This document shows, piece after piece, positions 2,778 to 11,870 of a DNA stretch of 12,652 nt (position 1 is its first letter; each line of letters begins with the position of its first letter). The stretch lies in UHGV virus genome UHGV-0154273; one strand, 5' to 3'. The notes under the pieces were generated by a model that worked only from the letters and a program-made list of their open reading frames with translations, was not told the DNA's origin and did no database searches. The translations under genes and the position numbers were made by a program. Source of the DNA: a virus.

Positions 2778-3305
2778 TTAGGCAGCCTGCAATAAATCGG
2801 CTGGCGTTGACGGATGGTATCTGGCTTTAGCTTTCAGGTACGCAGCACGCGCCGCCGCTTCGGTAGTGAATAAGCCGAGGTGATGGCGAACACCACCAAC
2901 GCGAATGTAAGCCTCCCATCTGCCAGAGCAGGCATGGTGGCTATAACCCTTGGCTTTGCGGTAATTGTGCTGGTTCTCTTGTGGCGTAACCGTGCGGAGA
3001 TTGATAAGGCGGTTGTCATCGCGTACCGCGTTGATATGGTCGATTTGCATCCCGGCAGGGATACCGTCATTAGCAATGATGAAGGCGACACGGTGGGCGT
3101 ATAGCGCATGAGATTTGCCATTGATGCGGACAGATACGCGCCTATATCCGGCGCTGTCCGTTACCGTGTCGGCCAGTTCCCCGGCTTTAGCGTAAATCCG
3201 CTTGTTGGCTCCGATCCGGTCTACTGCATGGAACAGGCGGCCAGTCTTCGCATCGTACCGAAACAAAGAGCGCAACAGCTCCGGGGCATAAGCATCAATA
3301 TTCAT
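2778..3305 (-). CDS. HNH endonuclease with C-terminal AP2-like DNA-binding domain (phage homing/packaging-associated type)
   Basis: HNH_3-type motif HRVAFIIANDGIPAGMQIDHINAVRDDNRLINLRTVTPQENQHN (His, Asn and His spacing typical of HNH). C-terminal GYSHHACSGRWEAYIRVGGVRHHLGLFTTEAAARAAY resembles the AP2 domain commonly fused to phage HNH nucleases. Confidence 0.85.
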   Translation of the reverse strand: MNIDAYAPELLRSLFRYDAKTGRLFHAVDRIGANKRIYAKAGELADTVTDSAGYRRVSVRINGKSHALYAHRVAFIIANDGIPAGMQIDHINAVRDDNRLINLRTVTPQENQHNYRKAKGYSHHACSGRWEAYIRVGGVRHHLGLFTTEAAARAAYLKAKARYHPSTPADLLQAA

Positions 3306-3321
3306 GGCTCGGCCCCTTTTG

Positions 3322-4317
3322 TTATGCAGCTTGTCGGAAATTTATAACGCAGTCAGGGCGGCGCAGCCCAACATTGAACAGGCGATATGAGTCCATCACC
3401 ATTGTCATTTCGCGTTCATCATCCCACTGGCGATTGATAACGCTCTGCGCTTCGACTGTCACAAGTACAGACGCAGGCCGGAACAGCGTCGCCCGTGTCA
3501 GCGCTTCCCCTGCGGTCACATCATAATCAGCGCCCAGTTCATGCGCGGTAATGGCTTCCTGCGGGTAACTGTTCAGCTCAATAACTCGCACCCCAGCGAC
3601 ATAGCCAACGCGACGCCATGCGTAATCATTGCCACTATCCCGGCTGTAACGGACGTTCATCAACTTCTTATGTTCCATCAGGATGCTGAACCAAGCTGGG
3701 TCGATGAGAAGGCACAGCTCCGCCACCGGAATATCTTTTTCAGTTAGGAATCGATTAACAGCAGCTTTAATAGCGTGAACCAGTTCGTTAGCCGCATCCT
3801 CTTCGCTCCCCGTTGTCAGGTCGAGCGAGACAACATTATCCGTCAGCGGGTTAAACGTTGGTTGCAACGTAGGCGGCGGTACAAAGTCAGTCGCTTTGAT
3901 TAGCTGGATAGTGTGCGCTTCGTCGTAGAACTTTGCATGGGCTGTCCCCATGTTGCGGCTCAGCTCTGCGCGAAAGGTGGGCGCTGTCCAGTCGTCTTGA
4001 TAGTCAATCGGGATGCGGATATAGCTCAGCGTATCCACAGAGATAATCAGCTTGTCCGACTTAACGGCGGTAGGCTCCAGCGATTGCCCTGCGGTTCTGC
4101 CCTTCACCTCCAGATCTCCGCTCAGGCGGTCTACACGATACTGATTACTGTTTTTCAGCGGCTTGTATGTGCTCAGCCCCTCGGCGAGAAACACGCTCTT
4201 TGCCTCAAGGCGGGTCTGAACGTCCCGGTCATACGCTTCAATGTGAATGTCGTTGTCAGCATCTACACCGCCCCAGTGCGGGCGGAATTGGTCAGGGGTA
4301 TAAACATTGTCAGTCAT
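3322..4317 (-). CDS. Conserved-looking 331-aa protein of unknown function; possibly structural (capsid-like), unverified
   Basis: Long clean ORF with GGGAG SD 8 nt upstream of ATG at 4317. No nucleotide-binding or nuclease motif seen. Sits between a Q/N-rich scaffold-like protein and the HNH endonuclease, a context typical of head/packaging modules. Product assignment is inference only. Confidence 0.7.
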   Translation of the reverse strand: MTDNVYTPDQFRPHWGGVDADNDIHIEAYDRDVQTRLEAKSVFLAEGLSTYKPLKNSNQYRVDRLSGDLEVKGRTAGQSLEPTAVKSDKLIISVDTLSYIRIPIDYQDDWTAPTFRAELSRNMGTAHAKFYDEAHTIQLIKATDFVPPPTLQPTFNPLTDNVVSLDLTTGSEEDAANELVHAIKAAVNRFLTEKDIPVAELCLLIDPAWFSILMEHKKLMNVRYSRDSGNDYAWRRVGYVAGVRVIELNSYPQEAITAHELGADYDVTAGEALTRATLFRPASVLVTVEAQSVINRQWDDEREMTMVMDSYRLFNVGLRRPDCVINFRQAA

Positions 4318-4385: not shown

Positions 4386-4733
4386 TCAGGCAGCAGCTTT
4401 TTCAGCCGCGATCTCAAGAATCAGGCCGATAAGCGCGAAGGCAGGCCAATGGGGATTAAGCTCGTGCAGGTGCGCAACGCCCCCACCAAAAGCATCGCGC
4501 ATATCAGCACCAGAGATGCCCGCGCGTTTGGCCGCCCGGCGCAGCAATCGCAGCTCGGAGCCGGGAACATACGCCGAGGGCATACGCACGCCGAAGCGTG
4601 AGGCGAGCCGCCGCCAGTGCGCTTCGTCAGCAAAGTCCTGCTTAAGCTGGCTGGCGTTGGCTTTCCAGTGTTCAATCCTCGCGCTACGGGCAGCCCTAGC
4701 CGCTGCCACGTTTTCAGGTGTCAGTAAGGTCAT
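4386..4733 (-). CDS. Hypothetical protein, 115 aa, Arg/Ala-rich with hydrophobic C-terminus
   Basis: ORF in operon orientation. Weak SD. C-terminal WPAFALIGLILEIAAEKAAA could be a membrane or amphipathic segment. Confidence 0.5.
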   Translation of the reverse strand: MTLLTPENVAAARAARSARIEHWKANASQLKQDFADEAHWRRLASRFGVRMPSAYVPGSELRLLRRAAKRAGISGADMRDAFGGGVAHLHELNPHWPAFALIGLILEIAAEKAAA

Positions 4734-4812
4734 TGTCAGATCTCAATGCAAAGTGGGTTTATGTGTGGTGTTTGAGAGGTAATTTCGCGTTTTACAGGTG
4801 CAGGTATACGAA

Positions 4813-4832
4813 TGTACATCTGGCGATGTACA
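4813..4832. promoter_or_regulatory. Inverted repeat TGTACAT-N6-ATGTACA in intergenic gap between the 228-aa and 115-aa genes
   Basis: Perfect 7-bp arms (4813-4819 and 4826-4832) with a 6-nt spacer. No U-run follows on the coding strand, so a binding site or attenuator-like hairpin is more likely than a terminator. Confidence 0.3.
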
Positions 4833-4892
4833 ACGCGATTCAGGCTCTAAAACGTAAGGTTAAGACGTGGGGAAGACAGGACAGGCGATTGC

Positions 4893-5579
4893 TTAACGGC
4901 CAGCGCGTTTGCCAGCGGAGCGCTGCGCAACCAGAGCGCGGTATTGATCGTCGTACTGGCGATGGCCGGGGCCATACCCTGATTGCTGCGCCCACTGCGA
5001 AAGCTGATCATACGCTGCAATAAACTCAGCATGAGACATACCAACAGGTTGCGAGGCAGGCTGGCCGTATGGGTTCCCCTGTGATGGGACATAACCAGTC
5101 GCAGTGCCTGCGACCATACGCTCTTGCAGATAATGAACCGCCCGCTGCATCTGCGCAGGGTCGCCAGACATAACCATCCGTTCAAGGGTTGATTGCGTCC
5201 CGGCGTCGAGCGTGCCAGCGTACTGCAACATCGCGTCAACTGTCCCCTGCCCTAGCTGGCTTTCGACAGACTGGTGAAACTGCCCCATCAGCCCATGAAG
5301 TTCAGGAGTCAACTCAACAGTAGTGCCATCCTGTAATTGCAGCGTGTCGCCCACTTGCGCAGCAACATCAATCTGCTGGTCTTGCTGGTTGGCAAAGTTA
5401 CTTTCGTTCCAGCTTTGATTAATGTTCGCTGGCTGCGTTTTCAGGAAATCAGCATCAGGTGTTGTCTGGTCGAATCTGCTAGCGCCGTTGTCAGCGCCTA
5501 CAGGTGCGGCCATGTACGGCGATTGCTGCGGCGCAGTATCAGCGCCCGAAAGGTACGGATTAACATTCTGGTCAGCCAT
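4893..5579 (-). CDS. Q/N/G-rich low-complexity acidic protein, 228 aa (scaffold-, decoration- or mimic-like; function unknown)
   Basis: ATG at 5579 with AAGAGG SD ~10 nt upstream. Composition strongly biased to Gln, Asn, Gly, Asp and Thr, with predicted disorder. Immediately follows the stop of the upstream HTH gene. Confidence 0.65.
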   Translation of the reverse strand: MADQNVNPYLSGADTAPQQSPYMAAPVGADNGASRFDQTTPDADFLKTQPANINQSWNESNFANQQDQQIDVAAQVGDTLQLQDGTTVELTPELHGLMGQFHQSVESQLGQGTVDAMLQYAGTLDAGTQSTLERMVMSGDPAQMQRAVHYLQERMVAGTATGYVPSQGNPYGQPASQPVGMSHAEFIAAYDQLSQWAQQSGYGPGHRQYDDQYRALVAQRSAGKRAGR

Positions 5580-7476: not shown

Positions 7477-9321
7477 TCAGAGGTATTTAGCGATGTACTG
7501 CCAGTTGCAGTTTTCAGGGCGGTAGAAGTAAGCAAGCTCATCAGGCGCAGCATCCAGCGCCAGCGATGACCACAGCAGAAACGCGCGGGCAGGTTGACCA
7601 TCGCGCCCGGCTCGTCCAATCATCTGAATGAGGTCAGGCAGGTCATCAGGAATATATGTAACGATGACGTTGCGAATGTCTGGCACATCAGCCCCCAGCC
7701 CGAAGGCTTTAGTAGCAATCAGAATTGCGCCCGGCGTAGTGGCAAACCACTCAGCGTTTGCGTGGCGTTCTTCGTTACTCAAGTGCATCGTCTTCGAGTG
7801 ATATGGGCGCGCCCGGTCGCCTAAGAGTTTCAGGTACGCCCGCAACGTCTTAAGGTCATTGACGAGAATGAGCGTCTTCTCTTCTTTCGGCAGAGCCTCG
7901 ACCAGACCAATAGCCGCTCGGAAACGTTCGCGGCACTGTCTGACTGTCGTCAACTGGATATTTTCGCGAGCAACATCAGCACGGAATGTTACGTAATCAC
8001 CACGGCAGCCAAGCGACGCCATTAAACTGCGCTCATTTTCGCGTAGCAGCGTAGCCGTAAATACGCAGCGTTGAGCCGAAAGAAAGGCATGTTGTAGCGA
8101 GTGCTGCATGGCCTCGTAAGCGGGTCGGAAATCCCAGTCTTTAACCGTGTGCGCTTCGTCGATGATAAAACGATCAACGCCGTAAGCCATCAGCGCCGCG
8201 AAGACCTGACTCGACAGAACAAGATGCTCAGGTGAAACGACAGCAACACGGAACGCCCCGGCAGCCAGCCCCGCGAGTTGTTGAGCGTTGCGGTGCCTCG
8301 GCAACTTGTCACCGAATGCCACAGCGTGAACGCCAGCATCCCGCAACTGGCGGAGAATCTGGCGCTTTAGGGTATTAGTGGGAACCACGATTACAGACAG
8401 GCCAACGCCAGCGCGGGACTCATAAATCAATGGATAAGCGAAGGCGGCGGTCTTGCCATAACCCGTAGGCAGAACGGCCAGCACATCACTACCACGGGAG
8501 AAGATCGCATCAGCAACAGACAACTGCCCCGGCCTCCACTCCAGCCCATCGGGTGGCAACAGGCTAACGCGTGCGTTTCGGTCACAGCGAACCAGCGGGC
8601 GAAACTCATAAGAGGCTGTATTCAGTGACGGCACAGACGGCGACACTGCCAAGCCGTTTGGGTCACAATGATGATTTGTACTGTTAAATTTATCCTCGGT
8701 AGGTTTCGACTCTCCACACCACAATTGACGAAACTCCGCTGAGTCCCCGTAGCGTTTGAAATCTGAATTGCGCATCGCTTCCAGTTTATTCATGCCCCTG
8801 TTGATGCGGTGTATAGTCTTCTCATCACAAATCAGGAACTCGCGGCAGGCTTTGAGAAAAGCATTCTGCCCGGTTGTCGATGCCGAAACGGCGTGCTCGC
8901 GCGGTTTCAATGCGGCATCATCTACGCGAACACCGGGAAAATCAGGCGGCAGCGGGTCAGCATACCGAGCAGGCTTCTTGTTGAGCCACATTTCTATCTC
9001 AGCGCGTCGGCAATGAATTGCGTCACCGGGCTGGATGACTTGCCGCAACCCCGTGTCAGAGCGCTGTTTTTGCTTCTTCGGTTGAACACCATGCAGCGCT
9101 CGCCATTCCCGCAGGGTCATAGCGGAGCCATCAGCATTGTAATAAAACTCTTCGGTCTTCGTGTTGTATGCCGCCTTAACGGGTTTATGCTTTATCGGGC
9201 ATATCTTGGAACGCCGAATAACAATCCCGTCAGCGACCATTTGCTGTACATCTGCGTTTGCGGTATTGAGCGGGTCAGCGTCGGCAGCCTGCGCAAGCAA
9301 ACGGCGTAGGTTCGTTGGCAT
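7477..9321 (-). CDS. RecQ-family superfamily-2 DNA helicase (DEAH box) with an unrecognised ~280-aa N-terminal domain; likely replication helicase of the element
   Basis: Helicase motifs read directly: RPGQ (Q-motif-like), LPTGYGKTAAF (Walker A/motif I), SPEHL, IIDEAHTVKDWDFRPAY (DEAH motif II followed by the RecQ-typical aromatic-rich loop), FTATL (motif III), MIGRAGRDGQ (motif VI). No RQC/HRDC tail. ATG at 9321 with GGAGA SD 9 nt upstream. Confidence 0.9.
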   Translation of the reverse strand: MPTNLRRLLAQAADADPLNTANADVQQMVADGIVIRRSKICPIKHKPVKAAYNTKTEEFYYNADGSAMTLREWRALHGVQPKKQKQRSDTGLRQVIQPGDAIHCRRAEIEMWLNKKPARYADPLPPDFPGVRVDDAALKPREHAVSASTTGQNAFLKACREFLICDEKTIHRINRGMNKLEAMRNSDFKRYGDSAEFRQLWCGESKPTEDKFNSTNHHCDPNGLAVSPSVPSLNTASYEFRPLVRCDRNARVSLLPPDGLEWRPGQLSVADAIFSRGSDVLAVLPTGYGKTAAFAYPLIYESRAGVGLSVIVVPTNTLKRQILRQLRDAGVHAVAFGDKLPRHRNAQQLAGLAAGAFRVAVVSPEHLVLSSQVFAALMAYGVDRFIIDEAHTVKDWDFRPAYEAMQHSLQHAFLSAQRCVFTATLLRENERSLMASLGCRGDYVTFRADVARENIQLTTVRQCRERFRAAIGLVEALPKEEKTLILVNDLKTLRAYLKLLGDRARPYHSKTMHLSNEERHANAEWFATTPGAILIATKAFGLGADVPDIRNVIVTYIPDDLPDLIQMIGRAGRDGQPARAFLLWSSLALDAAPDELAYFYRPENCNWQYIAKYL

Positions 9322-9436
9322 GGTGAAATCTCCAAAATTAAGGTGAGTTTAGAACGAGGCGCAGGACGGCAGCGCCGAGCTGCCCGTAGAGAGAATTTCA
9401 TGTCAGCAGTGACGTTGAATGTTCTGTCCCTCTTTA

Positions 9437-9462
9437 GTAGTGACTTTCATGTAGGTCACTAC
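9437..9462. promoter_or_regulatory. Perfect 8-bp inverted repeat GTAGTGAC-N10-GTCACTAC upstream of the helicase operon; candidate operator
   Basis: Arms at 9437-9444 and 9455-9462, ~115-140 bp upstream of the helicase start codon on the coding-strand side. Confidence 0.35.
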
Positions 9463-9510
9463 GTATGCACAAGCGAGTGGTGTTCGTTTTGCCACAGTAG
9501 AAACTCTAAT

Positions 9511-9529
9511 TTGATTATTTTTTAATCAA
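9511..9529. promoter_or_regulatory. AT-rich inverted repeat TTGATTA-TTTTT-TAATCAA in helicase-recombinase intergenic region
   Basis: 7-bp arms (9511-9517 and 9523-9529) with a 5-nt T spacer, within an AT-rich stretch that may hold the operon promoter or an origin-like region. Confidence 0.25.
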
Positions 9530-10211
9530 CACCTTTGTAAGCCTTGCCCTGTCTGACTTGATGAATGATTTGCTGATAACTTTCAGTAGGTTTGTTGGGA
9601 TGCTGGGATGTAAGGGGTTATAAGCGGCATTGTGAGTACCATATCCCAATATAGTACCGTACCACTACTCTATCCCCGCCGCGTTGACTGCCTGGCAAGC
9701 ACGGTTGCGTGGAGGGCCGAGCATCACAGCGGGCGAAGGCCGGGAATGAGCCAAAGGCGATGGAGCGGGCTGGAGCATAGCGAGAAGCGCAGCCAGTGTA
9801 GAGCGAAAAGCGATAACACTGATTAGGAGAAGGGATGAAAGGGAAGAACCCTTTTCTGTACATGTATTTTAAATGCAACTTTAAAGGTAAAACGAAGGTG
9901 TTGCCCTGCTTCAAATCTAGCTGAGTGATTGGACAACACAGCCTTTGATCCCTTCCCCTGCCCCATCCCTCGAATTGTTCAGTGATAAATCACATTCACA
10001 ATCTGATCTTGATACTCATCGTCTGGCACGGCTAAAGCCCCGCCATCTCTTCATATCAAGAGCCGCAAGTAATACGGAAATACATTATAAATCATACCAT
10101 TACGAGATTAGGCATAACATAAATATCTGATATCAATACAAAAGCTGTAGGCCATCCATCACCCACAGCCCAGTAACGGCCAGTGCTGGCATCTCATCAG
10201 ACTGTAGGTCA

Positions 10212-10844
10212 TCACTCTGTAACGCTGGCGGACAGCTCACGTTTGATACGGTAGAACGTTGCCCGGCTTATCCCGGCAGCTTTCATGATGTGCTCTGGTT
10301 TATTCCCAACGGTAAGCATAGCGCGGACAGTTTCACGGGCGCTCTCATCCTTAGACTTCCCGTTATATTTCCCCTCGGCTTTGGCACGCTTGATGCCCTG
10401 CGCTTGGCGTGCTCTGCGTGTCTCGTAGTCCACTCGTGCCATCGTAGCGAGGATATCAATCAGCATTGCGTTAACAGCTCTCAGGATGCCCTCTGTAAGC
10501 TCTGACGCCGTATCGTTCAGTAGTTGCCATGAGGTTGGCAGGTCAACGGCAACGATCACCAGTCCCTTATCCTGAATCCTCTGTTTCAGTGTCGCCCATT
10601 CCTTTTGCGTAAGGCGGCTTAGCCTGTCGATGCTCTCGACAAGCAAGACCTCTCCGGCCTGCGCATCATCCAGCAAGCGCATTAGTTCAGGACGCGCCAG
10701 CCTCGCACCGCTGGCGTTCTCGATGTACTCCGCCCGTACAGGCCAGCCCCGATCACTGGCGAACTCTCGCAGCAAGCCCAGCGCCCGGTCTGCGTGTTGC
10801 TCTGATGTACTGGCGCGGCAATAGATAAGCGCATTGTGTGCCAT
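10212..10844 (-). CDS. Serine recombinase of the resolvase/invertase family, 210 aa
   Basis: N-terminal catalytic region with YCRASTSEQ (Ser nucleophile motif), RPELMRLL and LLVESIDRLSR, which parallel Hin/resolvase motifs. C-terminal HTH (KAAGISRATFYRIKREL). ATG at 10844 with G-rich SD. Confidence 0.85.
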   Translation of the reverse strand: MAHNALIYCRASTSEQHADRALGLLREFASDRGWPVRAEYIENASGARLARPELMRLLDDAQAGEVLLVESIDRLSRLTQKEWATLKQRIQDKGLVIVAVDLPTSWQLLNDTASELTEGILRAVNAMLIDILATMARVDYETRRARQAQGIKRAKAEGKYNGKSKDESARETVRAMLTVGNKPEHIMKAAGISRATFYRIKRELSASVTE

Positions 10845-10970
10845 GCTTCCCCCTAAGTCTCAATGAAATATCACAGCAAGACCTATAAGAGATCACATCA
10901 ATAATGTGTAGTCAATAGAGTTTTATAGATAGTCAAATGAGACAGTGTGTCTATGTCTTTATCAGGTATA
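10845..10970. promoter_or_regulatory. Candidate res-like / autoregulatory region upstream of the serine recombinase gene
   Basis: Short repeats directly upstream of the recombinase start: direct repeats TAGTCAAT (10909-10916) and TAGTCAAAT (10930-10938), palindrome AGACA-GTG-TGTCT (10940-10952), repeated ATCACA motifs (10870-10900). By analogy with Tn3-family res sites lying just upstream of tnpR; inference only. Confidence 0.25.
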
Positions 10971-11561
10971 CCCGAAAGAGACTGGCACCGCCCCACAGCA
11001 GCATTCCCCGGCACATCCAGCGAACACAGCGTAGAGCGCACGCAGCAGATCAGCACGGCACCGCCACGATCTCGAAATCACAAAGGCATTGAATCACACA
11101 TTGGAAGCACAGAACGCAGCACAGAGCGATACAGATCGTTTTAGAGGGATGTACAGATACACAGTGAAAGGCAGATGATCGCAGCACTCGTCCCACACGG
11201 TTATTCAGCAACAGCAATCAGCCAGCATCTCGCTCAGTAGCACGCTCCTGTAATGCTTGTCTCGGATGAGCAAAATCTTAGGGTTTCTCAGCGACCCCTG
11301 ACGCGCGGGCACGCACATGCACACGGGGGCGCGGGCGAGCTATAGAGTTGAGGGAGGGGCAACCATAAGCGTGCAATTTTCAAGCTGGGACTTTTAACAG
11401 TGGGATTGTGGGGCTGTTTTGCATTCAGAGAGTGAGGCTGTGGGGGAGCCCTCCTTGAACCAAATAATGCGAAACTGATCATTCTTCCACGTAGCTTAGG
11501 CCACTTTGCATGGATAATTAGCACCAAACACAGCAGCCAGTTTAAGAGAAATGCGCGACAT

Positions 11562-11780
11562 CTACCGTCTGCGTTTACCCCAGCGCTGCATTATGGCTCT
11601 GTGTGCTTCATCCGCTGACCATTCAATAGGTACAACAACGTGTACAGGCATTTCATCGCCAGAGGGGGCACCACGTAAATGGACTCTATACCCTAGTTTA
11701 TTAAGTTCTACCTCGGACATCGGTGATATAACCTCGCCGCTATGGCTGCCGCCAACAAACTCAGCTTTAAAATCCAACAT
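11562..11780 (-). CDS. Hypothetical protein, 72 aa
   Basis: ORF whose ATG (11780-11778) is preceded, 1 nt away, by a 9-nt homopolymeric G tract on the coding strand. The plus-strand ORF 11551-11874 covers the same DNA; the minus strand is preferred because of operon orientation but this is uncertain. Confidence 0.4.
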   Translation of the reverse strand: MLDFKAEFVGGSHSGEVISPMSEVELNKLGYRVHLRGAPSGDEMPVHVVVPIEWSADEAHRAIMQRWGKRRR

Positions 11781-11781
11781 G

Positions 11782-11790
11782 CCCCCCCCC
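11782..11790. repeat. Homopolymeric tract C9 (G9 on coding strand) abutting the start codon of the 72-aa gene
   Basis: Nine consecutive C at 11782-11790. Potential slipped-strand phase-variation site or assembly-error hotspot. Confidence 0.9.
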
Positions 11791-11823
11791 TACACACTAA
11801 CAAGAATCATTGAAGGTGTATCA

Positions 11824-11841
11824 CCCAGCAACTACGCTGGG
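11824..11841. promoter_or_regulatory. Hairpin-forming inverted repeat CCCAGC-N6-GCTGGG between the 153-aa and 72-aa genes
   Basis: 6-bp arms (11824-11829 and 11836-11841). No immediate U-run, so terminator function is uncertain. Confidence 0.25.
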
Positions 11842-11870
11842 CAGAACATCACCTCGGACTATCAATCAAC

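Follow-up and report, generated by a model that had tools for sequence, protein, structure and literature searches.

A conserved non-coding module with covarying hairpins in a satellite-like island related to Bonnellvirus phages

What is the role of an 890-bp stretch of DNA (positions 9322–10211) that separates a helicase gene from a recombinase gene and that itself seems to contain no gene at all? The question is raised by a stretch of 12,652 nucleotides from UHGV virus genome UHGV-0154273, here called the window. The interval had originally been read as a plausible control region and/or origin for the helicase operon. The view that it is non-coding, acts in cis and precedes this operon holds, but two things were overlooked, namely a conserved structured module, of which the part within the interval (9653–10211) makes up about 63% of the gap, and the location of the interval in a satellite-like island. 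The conservation of this module, the covariation of its hairpins, its non-coding status and the kinship of the island with phages are established below. The module matches no catalogued RNA family, and the interval is best described as the putative control or cis-acting region, without coding function, of a satellite-like island.

The gene-free interval and its two parts

Both neighbouring genes could be identified, and they are the ones that had been expected: to the left a gene for a RecQ-family SF2 helicase (7477–9321, minus strand), and to the right a gene for a small serine recombinase (10212–10844, minus strand). The claim that no genes lie between them is supported by annotation, Pfam searches, periodicity and indel evidence, which all agree. 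PGAP annotated no genes in the gap, either in a record that is 100% identical to the window or in its relatives, and six-frame translation of the gap gave no Pfam match at E≤1. The variable alignment columns of the gap lack a three-nucleotide periodicity (54/47/45), and homologues of the gap are separated by single-base indels. A pseudogene or a small protein can be ruled out on the basis of the lack of Pfam matches, the lack of codon periodicity and these indels. The minus strand of the gap is A-poor and contains an open reading frame of 98 amino acids, for which the simplest explanation is that stop codons are rare on an A-poor strand. A Shine–Dalgarno sequence followed by ATG at 9825–9837 was also rejected as the start of a small protein, because a stop codon comes next in most relatives. 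A search for tRNA and tmRNA found none.

The gap consists of two unlike parts, a lineage-specific leader of the helicase gene (9322–9652) and a conserved module of 563 bp (9653–10215). In the islands to which it belongs the usual distance between helicase and recombinase genes is 1.26 kb, and the 890 bp present in the window is a shortened version of this. When the window is compared with E. coli E2348/69 and other genomes, only 9653–10215 is found in common, at about 90% identity; similarity at the DNA level to these genomes is absent for 9338–9652 as well as for the recombinase gene, and the match ends exactly at the stop codon of the recombinase. The features discussed in the following are collected in Table 1.

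Table 1 Location of the features of the helicase–recombinase interval, its module and the 45-nt element, in window coordinates
Feature	Coordinates	Strand	Basis or remark
Helicase-proximal leader	9322–9377	−	Shine–Dalgarno GGAGA, read from the sequence, some 8 nt upstream of the start codon (ATG at 9321)
Perfect 8-bp inverted repeat, 10-bp spacer	9437–9462		GTAGTGAC-N10-GTCACTAC
AT palindrome (9511–9529) with promoter-like hexamers	9489–9541	both (+ 9489–9518; − 9541–9514)	TTGATTA-T5-TAATCAA; promoter scan
Tandem TGGGATG(C/T), two copies	9596–9611		TGGGATGC/TGGGATGT
AGTACC (9635–9640, 9653–9658) and GTACC (9659–9663)	9635–9663		Imperfect palindrome GTACCATAT-N-ATATAGTAC; module junction
Conserved satellite-specific non-coding module, 563 bp	9653–10215	−	Right end is the recombinase stop codon
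Module A	9653–9793	−	T-poor on the plus strand (T is 9–12% of bases); A-poor in gene sense
Lineage-variable segment, long hairpin with G-tract	9794–9944	−	Inverted-repeat scan, folding
G-tract GGGATGGGGCAGGGGAAGGG, G-quadruplex-type motif	9950–9969	−	Sole such motif in the window
Hairpin H1, outer 9974–9978/9998–10002, inner 9982–9985/9990–9993	9974–10002	−	Covariation
Hairpin H2, 9-bp stem 10007–10015/10053–10061, inner hairpin 10024–10032/10037–10045	10007–10061	−	Covariation
Hairpin H0, 5 bp	10063–10077	−	96% paired; both-side changes in one pair
−10-like block TG-n-TATGAT/TATAAT	10084–10099	−	TATGAT in all but one of 38 core sequences, including L023
Terminator-like hairpin with T-run	10142–10171	−	40 nt after the recombinase stop; scan; sequence conserved
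45-nt element common to Bonnellvirus phages	11347–11389	+	Outside the gap; partner of the G-tract

The leader is conserved to very different degrees along its length. Its helicase-proximal positions are 86–92% identical in many lineages (L007, L009, L010, L013, L015, L017–L019, L023), and 9481–9656 is common only to the window, L013 and L015 (78–80% identity). The four motifs that had been noticed in and around this part, the 8-bp inverted repeat, the AT palindrome, the TGGGATG tandem and the AGTACC repeats, are all present in the sequence at the positions that had been given for them. Their statistical weight was assessed with 300 shuffles. The single 8-bp inverted repeat (shuffle mean 0.13) was reached by 10% of the shuffles, the three 7-bp inverted repeats (mean 0.65) by 6%, the four tandem 8-mers (mean 0.3) by 1.3%, and the eight nearby hexamer repeats (mean 4.2) by 11%. 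As repeats, the motifs are weakly above chance (p about 0.01–0.1).

The AT palindrome is the only one of the four that is retained in relatives. It reads ATGGTTA-T5-TAACCAT in L015, as a result of two compensatory double changes, and is degraded in the other relative. The 8-bp inverted repeat is not kept in L013 or L015, in which the TGGGATG tandem is missing or altered as well. Between the two AGTACC repeats both relatives hold an extra 155 bp that is absent from the window, and which includes a block of 48 nt that is 89–94% identical in E2348/69-type islands.

The original prediction had spoken of operator-like palindromes. This term may apply to the AT palindrome, in view of its overlap with promoter-like hexamers and its preservation in L015. 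The other three motifs are not conserved. A promoter scan, which had been proposed as a check, did place hexamers over the AT palindrome, but it gave two hits where 2.3 were expected from shuffles. We consider 9489–9541 a candidate for a putative promoter/operator of the helicase operon.

The wider proposal was that the entire gap is an ordinary promoter/operator region, perhaps with an origin, in which HTH proteins of the island would bind the palindromes and repress the helicase operon. Apart from the hexamers on both strands of the AT palindrome and the compensatory changes in L015, this is suggested by the weak HTH match of a protein of 187 aa encoded in the operon, and by a pRha regulator gene in the equivalent gap of a distant lineage. 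However, it covers 9322–9652 at most, three of its four motifs are unconserved and near chance, the promoter-like hits are not enriched, and the 563-bp structured module, which is most of the gap, is left unexplained. This proposal is improbable. It may hold for 9489–9541, where it would fit with a role of the module as RNA as well as with a role as DNA.

The island and its kinship with Bonnellvirus phages

Whole islands of this kind are about 14.5 kb in length, carry an integrase at one end and are bounded by a tRNA gene. The integrase, of the tyrosine type, is found at the left end, with flanking tRNA-Gly or tRNA-Leu genes in L002, L001, L007, L008 and L023. Comparison with PHROG identified a major head protein, a scaffold protein, HNH and EndoVII nucleases, the helicase and an invertase-type recombinase. 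The major head protein and the scaffold are the only virion genes recognised, and no terminase, portal or primase was recognised among the island proteins that were scanned. To the right of the recombinase gene lies a variable slot with restriction or defence cargo.

The capsid protein encoded in the window shows 57% identity along its entire length to its counterpart in phage aldrigsur (Bonnellvirus; E=1e-136), and the C-terminus of the scaffold is 31% identical to its Bonnellvirus counterpart. The kinship extends to non-coding DNA. A 45-nt element upstream of the recombinase gene, nearly invariant in every satellite lineage including the most distant ones, matches with 91–93% identity the non-coding DNA that directly follows the final gene in nine Bonnellvirus or Bonnellvirus-like phages; in three further phages the identity is 84–86%. 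In sibling islands of the E2348/69 type, the helicase-proximal half of the gap holds 165–205 nt of non-coding DNA from the end of the phage genome, with 83–98% identity to 15 Bonnellvirus-like phage records, and the record of phage glasur is cut exactly within the segment that matches these islands. In gene direction the 45-nt element is followed by an A-poor tract, the junction palindromes and the leader, in the phage as well as in the island, the difference being that in the island the recombinase gene and the hairpin core are inserted after the 45-nt element. The cis DNA that is common with phages resides in the 45-nt element and in the sibling islands; none of it is found inside 9322–10215 of the window.

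As judged from its sequence, the island appears to be a satellite-like element related to Bonnellvirus phages (T7/phiKMV-like, Autographiviridae), with a putative dependence on such a helper. The phage-derived piece present in sibling islands is apparently lost or replaced in the sub-lineage of the window. Because the gap itself matches no sequenced phage, the link between the window's own gap coordinates and a helper is an indirect one.

Several signals that a helper might have contributed were considered. A copy of a helper cos or pac site within the gap found no support, since phage and plasmid similarity was absent, and an exact-pattern scan of IMG/VR gave no junction-like palindrome. A promoter for a phage RNA polymerase was suggested by CACTATAG in sibling islands, which resembles the T7/SP6 core; since the 42-kb phage genome contains this sequence a single time, it is not the general promoter of that phage, and the candidate was dropped. 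A 19-nt motif that is repeated in the early region of the phage is absent from the window. In the Bonnellvirus literature that was searched we found no report on the physical ends of the genomes, and in the literature searched for this purpose no description of the island family or of satellites of Bonnellvirus.

In general organisation the island is similar to satellites of virulent phages (Vibrio PLE/ICP1, PICMI) and to satellites that encode a capsid (cf-PICI): it is an integrative island with a tRNA-site integrase, some but not all head genes, with homology to those of a phage, and a cargo slot for restriction or defence, and it has some non-coding DNA in common with its putative helper. 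It differs from these in that the putative helper, inferred from sequence, belongs to the Autographiviridae (Bonnellvirus), and in that a capsid and a short scaffold are the only head proteins encoded, in addition to which the island has a RecQ-like helicase gene and the gene for the small serine recombinase.

Conservation and folding of the module

Of the 5426 complete E. coli genomes searched, 59 carry the module, always in the chromosome and as a single copy. It was furthermore found in eight other species of the Enterobacteriaceae, with Kluyvera, Kosakonia, Enterobacter and Trabulsiella among the genera, and in about 30 metagenome contigs. Its nucleotide identity is 86–92% where the helicase protein is only 68–69% identical, and the core (9950–10140) is 86–87% identical at the nucleotide level in islands with helicases that are 68–69% identical in protein. 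Identity between the recombinases that adjoin the module is just 26% when the window is compared with E2348/69. This contrast points to selection on the nucleotide sequence itself or to repeated swapping of the module among islands.

Rfam 15, which includes the C4/P4 CI RNA, gave no match at gathering score in the window, and at E≤10 only chance-level matches were obtained in the region; on four sibling loci nothing was found except a flanking tRNA. A search of 50,697 phage records gave nothing similar to the module, even with a threshold of E≤10, and the entire segment 9322–10215 of the window has neither a match to a sequenced phage nor similarity to plasmids. Because no phage record matches this segment, the module appears to be specific to the satellite instead of being copied from a signal of a sequenced helper. 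Two other ideas about its origin or use were abandoned. The frequency of GGA on the purine-rich strand, counted by hand, is close to what composition predicts, so that a sponge for CsrA was dropped. The similarity of 9941–9977 to the 3′ end and flank of tRNA-Gly, which could indicate a relic attachment site, was taken as chance (nhmmer E 0.6–1.5, inverted with respect to the real site).

The structure of the core was evaluated by scoring a hand-drawn model comprising H0, H2 and H1 (31 pairs) on 38 distinct core sequences. In this set 98.4% of the cells form standard pairs and nine pairs have changes on both sides, a result that was matched by none of 500 shuffles; in controls in which the 3′ partner was slid by 1–3 columns, only 0–1 pairs with both-side changes remained. 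In the stem of H2 both-side changes are present in six of the nine pairs, with 99.4% of the cells paired. The most divergent copy, L023, has the entire H2 stem replaced by GAGGATGAA/TTCATCCTC, and it retains both stems of H1 via compensatory changes. Base pairs in the core are maintained by compensatory substitution.

Next to the core, the lineage-variable segment has sequences that are unrelated across lineages, yet a long inverted repeat is present in all lineages that were scanned or folded, and in six of seven lineages tested against shuffles the fold z-score of this segment is between −2.3 and −4.3 on at least one strand. The tract at 9941–9959 is complementary to two other tracts, at 9825–9842 and 9742–9758. 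Although the sequence of the G-tract changes, most variants retain its four G-runs; about five (L008, L023, L056, L099, L108) show only three when read by eye. In module A a hairpin at about 9691–9718 has outer pairs GCC/GGC, GCG/CGC or GUA/UAC and an inner pair that is G-C or A-U. This hairpin is the only piece of the module that was found in the distant lineages (L022, E=1.2e-4; L020, E=0.03).

Part of the G-tract (9959–9971, minus strand) is an inverted partial copy of positions 11350–11361 (plus strand) of the 45-nt element, the first 12 nt of which, GAGGGAGGGGCA, recur inverted inside the G-tract. The window contains exactly two copies of the motif GAGGGA(N)GGGGCA, in inverted orientation (0.01 expected), and about 20 loci have the same pair. 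One could envisage that these two copies bound an invertible segment of the Hin type, and that inversion of the recombinase gene together with an outward promoter switches the helicase operon. The position of the pair around the recombinase gene, the best PHROG match of the recombinase ('DNA invertase') and the −10-like block that lies inside the segment and faces the helicase would all fit. However, not a single inverted arrangement was seen among the 53 E. coli genomes and about 30 other loci that have the module contiguous across the left repeat; furthermore, the repeats are just 12–13 nt long and on reading have no dyad symmetry of the hix/gix kind, and the recombinases encoded between the same repeats are only 26% identical across islands. 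An invertible switch is thus very improbable.

Watson–Crick covariation is identical on both strands and fits hairpins in DNA equally well. The gene-sense (minus) strand may be the relevant one, a preference based on the weaker evidence of a few wobble pairs, fold energies and layout. The fold z-score is −3.58 for the minus strand versus −1.74 for the plus strand, the alignment-fold energy is −141 versus −96 kcal/mol, and seven wobble pairs fit the minus strand versus one that fits the plus strand. H2 has five U-G wobbles that are possible on the minus strand only, and its inner stem has an invariant G-U pair. In gene sense the recombinase stop codon is followed by the terminator-like hairpin, the −10-like block and then the hairpins, in the same direction as all genes. 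The −10-like block has no −35 hexamer, its TG is not universal, and it was not called by the promoter scan. On the plus strand, most lineages have a weak terminator-like hairpin with a T-run (8189–8203 in L001), and the region is purine-rich and T-poor on this strand, which would suit an antisense transcript.

Possible roles of the module in RNA and in DNA

Our tentative reading, to which we give somewhat less than an even chance, is that the module is a structured leader or inter-cistronic RNA in gene sense, within the cis-acting hub of a satellite-like island. An RNA is favoured because the preservation of stems across long loops by compensatory change is seen more typically in RNA, and because the hints about the strand agree with it. 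The gap would then be the shortened version of a cis-acting non-coding hub in an integrative island of about 14.5 kb that is a satellite of Bonnellvirus phages. Followed in gene direction, its layout starts with the 45-nt element and the serine recombinase gene and continues via the terminator-like hairpin into the module, from 10215 down to 9653. There the −10-like block is followed by H0, H2 and H1, the G-tract, the lineage-specific long hairpin and the A-poor tract with its covarying hairpin. After the module comes the leader of 330 bp, with the promoter-like site over the palindrome, and then the helicase operon.

In such an arrangement the module would be transcribed together with the genes and, once folded, would act in the leader or between cistrons; transcription of the region, the strand in question and the function of the module are all points that we infer. 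The hairpins could serve as processing or stability signals, like the RNase III sites of T7 transcripts, and alternative pairings of the G-tract might decide whether transcription or translation proceeds into the helicase and capsid operon. In this way the expression of the operon could be tied to infection by the helper phage.

Two known types of RNA structure are relevant for comparison. In T7-like phages, RNase III processing hairpins lie between genes. H2 is similar in that it has a 9-bp lower stem, an internal loop and an upper stem and is located between cistrons of an element related to T7-like phages; it has no sequence similarity to these hairpins, and the resemblance is one of shape only. 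The CI RNA immunity of P4 and the put RNAs of HK022 are leader RNA structures of a main operon that decide on the progress of transcription. The module resembles these in having a putative leader structure in which one tract, 9941–9959, could pair with either of two others, but it differs from P4 in that both partner tracts are on the same side, as opposed to seqA and seqC of P4, and in the lack of a C4/CI match in Rfam.

Alternatively, the module could act at the DNA level, as a replication and/or packaging signal that is the equivalent of the genome-end (concatemer-junction) region of the helper. The hairpins and the G-tract would then be formed in single-stranded or extruded DNA, and would be recognised by proteins that the helper uses for replication or packaging, or by the RecQ-like helicase, EndoVII or HNH protein of the island. 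A satellite needs such signals, and no other candidate was noticed. The colinearity with the phage end region in the 45-nt element, A-poor tract and junction palindromes is in agreement with it, as are the phage end DNA of up to 98% identity in the gap of sibling islands, the cut of the glasur record exactly in that segment, and the presence of a RecQ-family helicase gene next to the gap and of EndoVII in the island. The conservation of the core also far exceeds that of the genes beside it, which would be expected if machinery of a common helper or host reads this site, and iteron-like arrays are present in the equivalent gap, though only in the distant lineages L020 and L022. On the other hand, the module is unlike any of the 50,697 phage records (E≤10), there are no iterons in the window (no repeat family beyond chance in 9000–11300), compensated stems across a 37-nt loop are in our judgement more characteristic of an RNA, and the literature searched does not document where Bonnellvirus genomes physically end. 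Reading of the core by eye gave no DnaA box, but an origin in the gap is conceivable. A DNA signal is the main rival of the RNA reading, and we regard it as somewhat unlikely.

The comparison with the concatemer-junction and packaging region of T7 gives a similar picture. The gap of the sibling islands is like this region in that it holds near-identical phage genome-end DNA in the same order of elements, whereas the gap of the window is without phage-derived sequence and the module is apparently satellite-specific.

To return to the structured RNA, such an RNA would represent a new and fairly large class in the enterobacteria, where structured RNAs have been looked for intensively; a DNA signal, on the other hand, would reveal the way in which a T7-like phage replicates or packages a satellite. 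It is conceivable, but on balance doubtful, that the islands are a new satellite family that exploits virulent Bonnellvirus phages in E. coli and relatives, with the module as a new large structured element that senses or uses the helper. The module might then couple infection by the helper to expression, replication or packaging, and the lineage-variable hairpin could serve as a specificity cassette. To our knowledge, the helpers of the phage satellites known from E. coli until now (P4, PICIs, cf-PICIs) are temperate. Virulent T7-like phages, which find wide use in therapy and biotechnology, would be added to the scope of satellite biology by an island family that takes its capsid gene and near-identical genome-end DNA from them.

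For further work the module offers a testable handle: it is short and has sharp boundaries, it is present in the well-studied strain EPEC E2348/69, its hairpins are defined by covariation, and a natural deletion variant exists. This variant, E. coli record NZ_LR536431.1, is otherwise 100% identical to the window and lacks 554 bp (9709–10262), i.e. most of the module together with the 3′ end of the recombinase gene, which is truncated as a result. Both junctions carry GTTGC (9704–9708 and 10258–10262), so that the event looks like a microhomology deletion. With the phage-derived piece absent from the window and most of the module deleted in a near-identical strain, the sub-lineage to which the window belongs may be in decay.

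Phage-related DNA and proteins

The approximately 1 kb upstream of the recombinase gene (window 10845-11870) is also without annotation in a record that is 100% identical, so that the recombinase is a lone gene flanked by two large non-coding stretches. This upstream DNA differs from island to island, except for a 45-nt element that has 91-93% identity to sequences of nine Bonnellvirus or Bonnellvirus-like phages, the putative helpers, in which the copy is non-coding and directly follows the last gene. A related stretch is present in the tail-fibre/tail-sheath intergenic gap of the P2-like phage R18C, directly upstream of a 693-bp gene, a length that it shares with the gene adjoining the element in the island of E. 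coli E2348/69. The coordinates of these and other features are collected in the table.

Sibling islands also possess a piece of 165-205 nt with up to 98% identity to the non-coding genome-end DNA of Bonnellvirus. The palindromes CTATA-GTGA-TATAG and GTATC-GCTA-GATAC, both small, lie in this piece, as does a portion of a long A-poor tract. No such piece is present in the window.

At the protein level, the island capsid protein is 57% identical to that of Bonnellvirus, and the scaffold is much shorter than its phage counterpart (228 versus 409 aa), with relatedness confined to the C-terminus. These features would be compatible with a capsid of reduced size, built to hold a 14.5-kb genome.

Coordinates of features in the window and in related island loci (L numbers)
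Feature	Location	Strand	Remark
45-nt element GTTGAGGGAGGGGCAACCATAAGCGTGCAATTTTCAAGCTGGG	window 11347-11389	+	near-invariant across all island lineages
Capsid and scaffold	window 3322-4317 and 4893-5579	-	both related to phage proteins
Phage-like genome-end piece	L001 7639-7844 (E2348/69); L127 4378-4542; L128 3835-4007		sibling islands
Second G-quadruplex-type motif	L008 3119-3142; L009 3164-3187; L019 (reoriented copy) 8293-8316	gene-sense in all	
Repeat sets	L020 4420-4830; L022 4070-4440 and 3287-3530		equivalent gap, distant lineage
Regions of L002 (NZ_LR536431.1)	13251-13637 and 2841-3538		554-bp deletion; IS1
Cargo slot right of recombinase	L006 4195-5563; L010 4029-5168; L004 and L005 about 4655-5472; L127 576-2431		

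Motifs and repeats between helicase and recombinase

Within the conserved non-coding module, TTCACAATCTGATCT (window 9997-10011, plus strand) is unchanged in 37 of the 38 sequences of the hairpin-bearing core. It contains ATCTGA, reminiscent of ATCTGTT, the T7 class II pause/termination signal of the T7 concatemer junction; the resemblance is a lead only. The C-rich tract at 9941-9977 (plus strand) is similar to the tRNA-Gly(CCC) 3' end and flank at the attachment site of the islands (L020 900-936), a likeness that is not significant (E 0.6-1.5) and is in opposite orientation.

In some islands the DNA that separates the module from the recombinase stop codon is longer by 177-265 bp. This additional DNA has a second G-quadruplex-type motif, GGG(C/T)GGGGTTATTGGG(T/C)GGTGGGG, which shares its strand with the first one in the module. 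In islands of a distant lineage (helicase identity 42-46%), the equivalent gap holds arrays of about ten ATAC-TAAGGAGG-GTAT-like units spaced 33-39 bp apart. Iterons are one possible identity for these arrays; decoy sites of the ribosome-binding or CsrA type are another. Further short repeat sets occur in these islands, and in L020 the gap also includes a pRha regulator gene.

Deletion variant and cargo slot

The island of NZ_LR536431.1 is identical to the window apart from a 554-bp microhomology deletion, through which the bulk of the module is gone, as is the C-terminus of the recombinase. An IS1 adjoins the integrase; this copy may be in decay. To the right of the recombinase the cargo varies by island, including XcyI and Eco29kI restriction-modification systems, a TIR-domain protein and a DUF3800 protein, and this slot looks like a defence hotspot.
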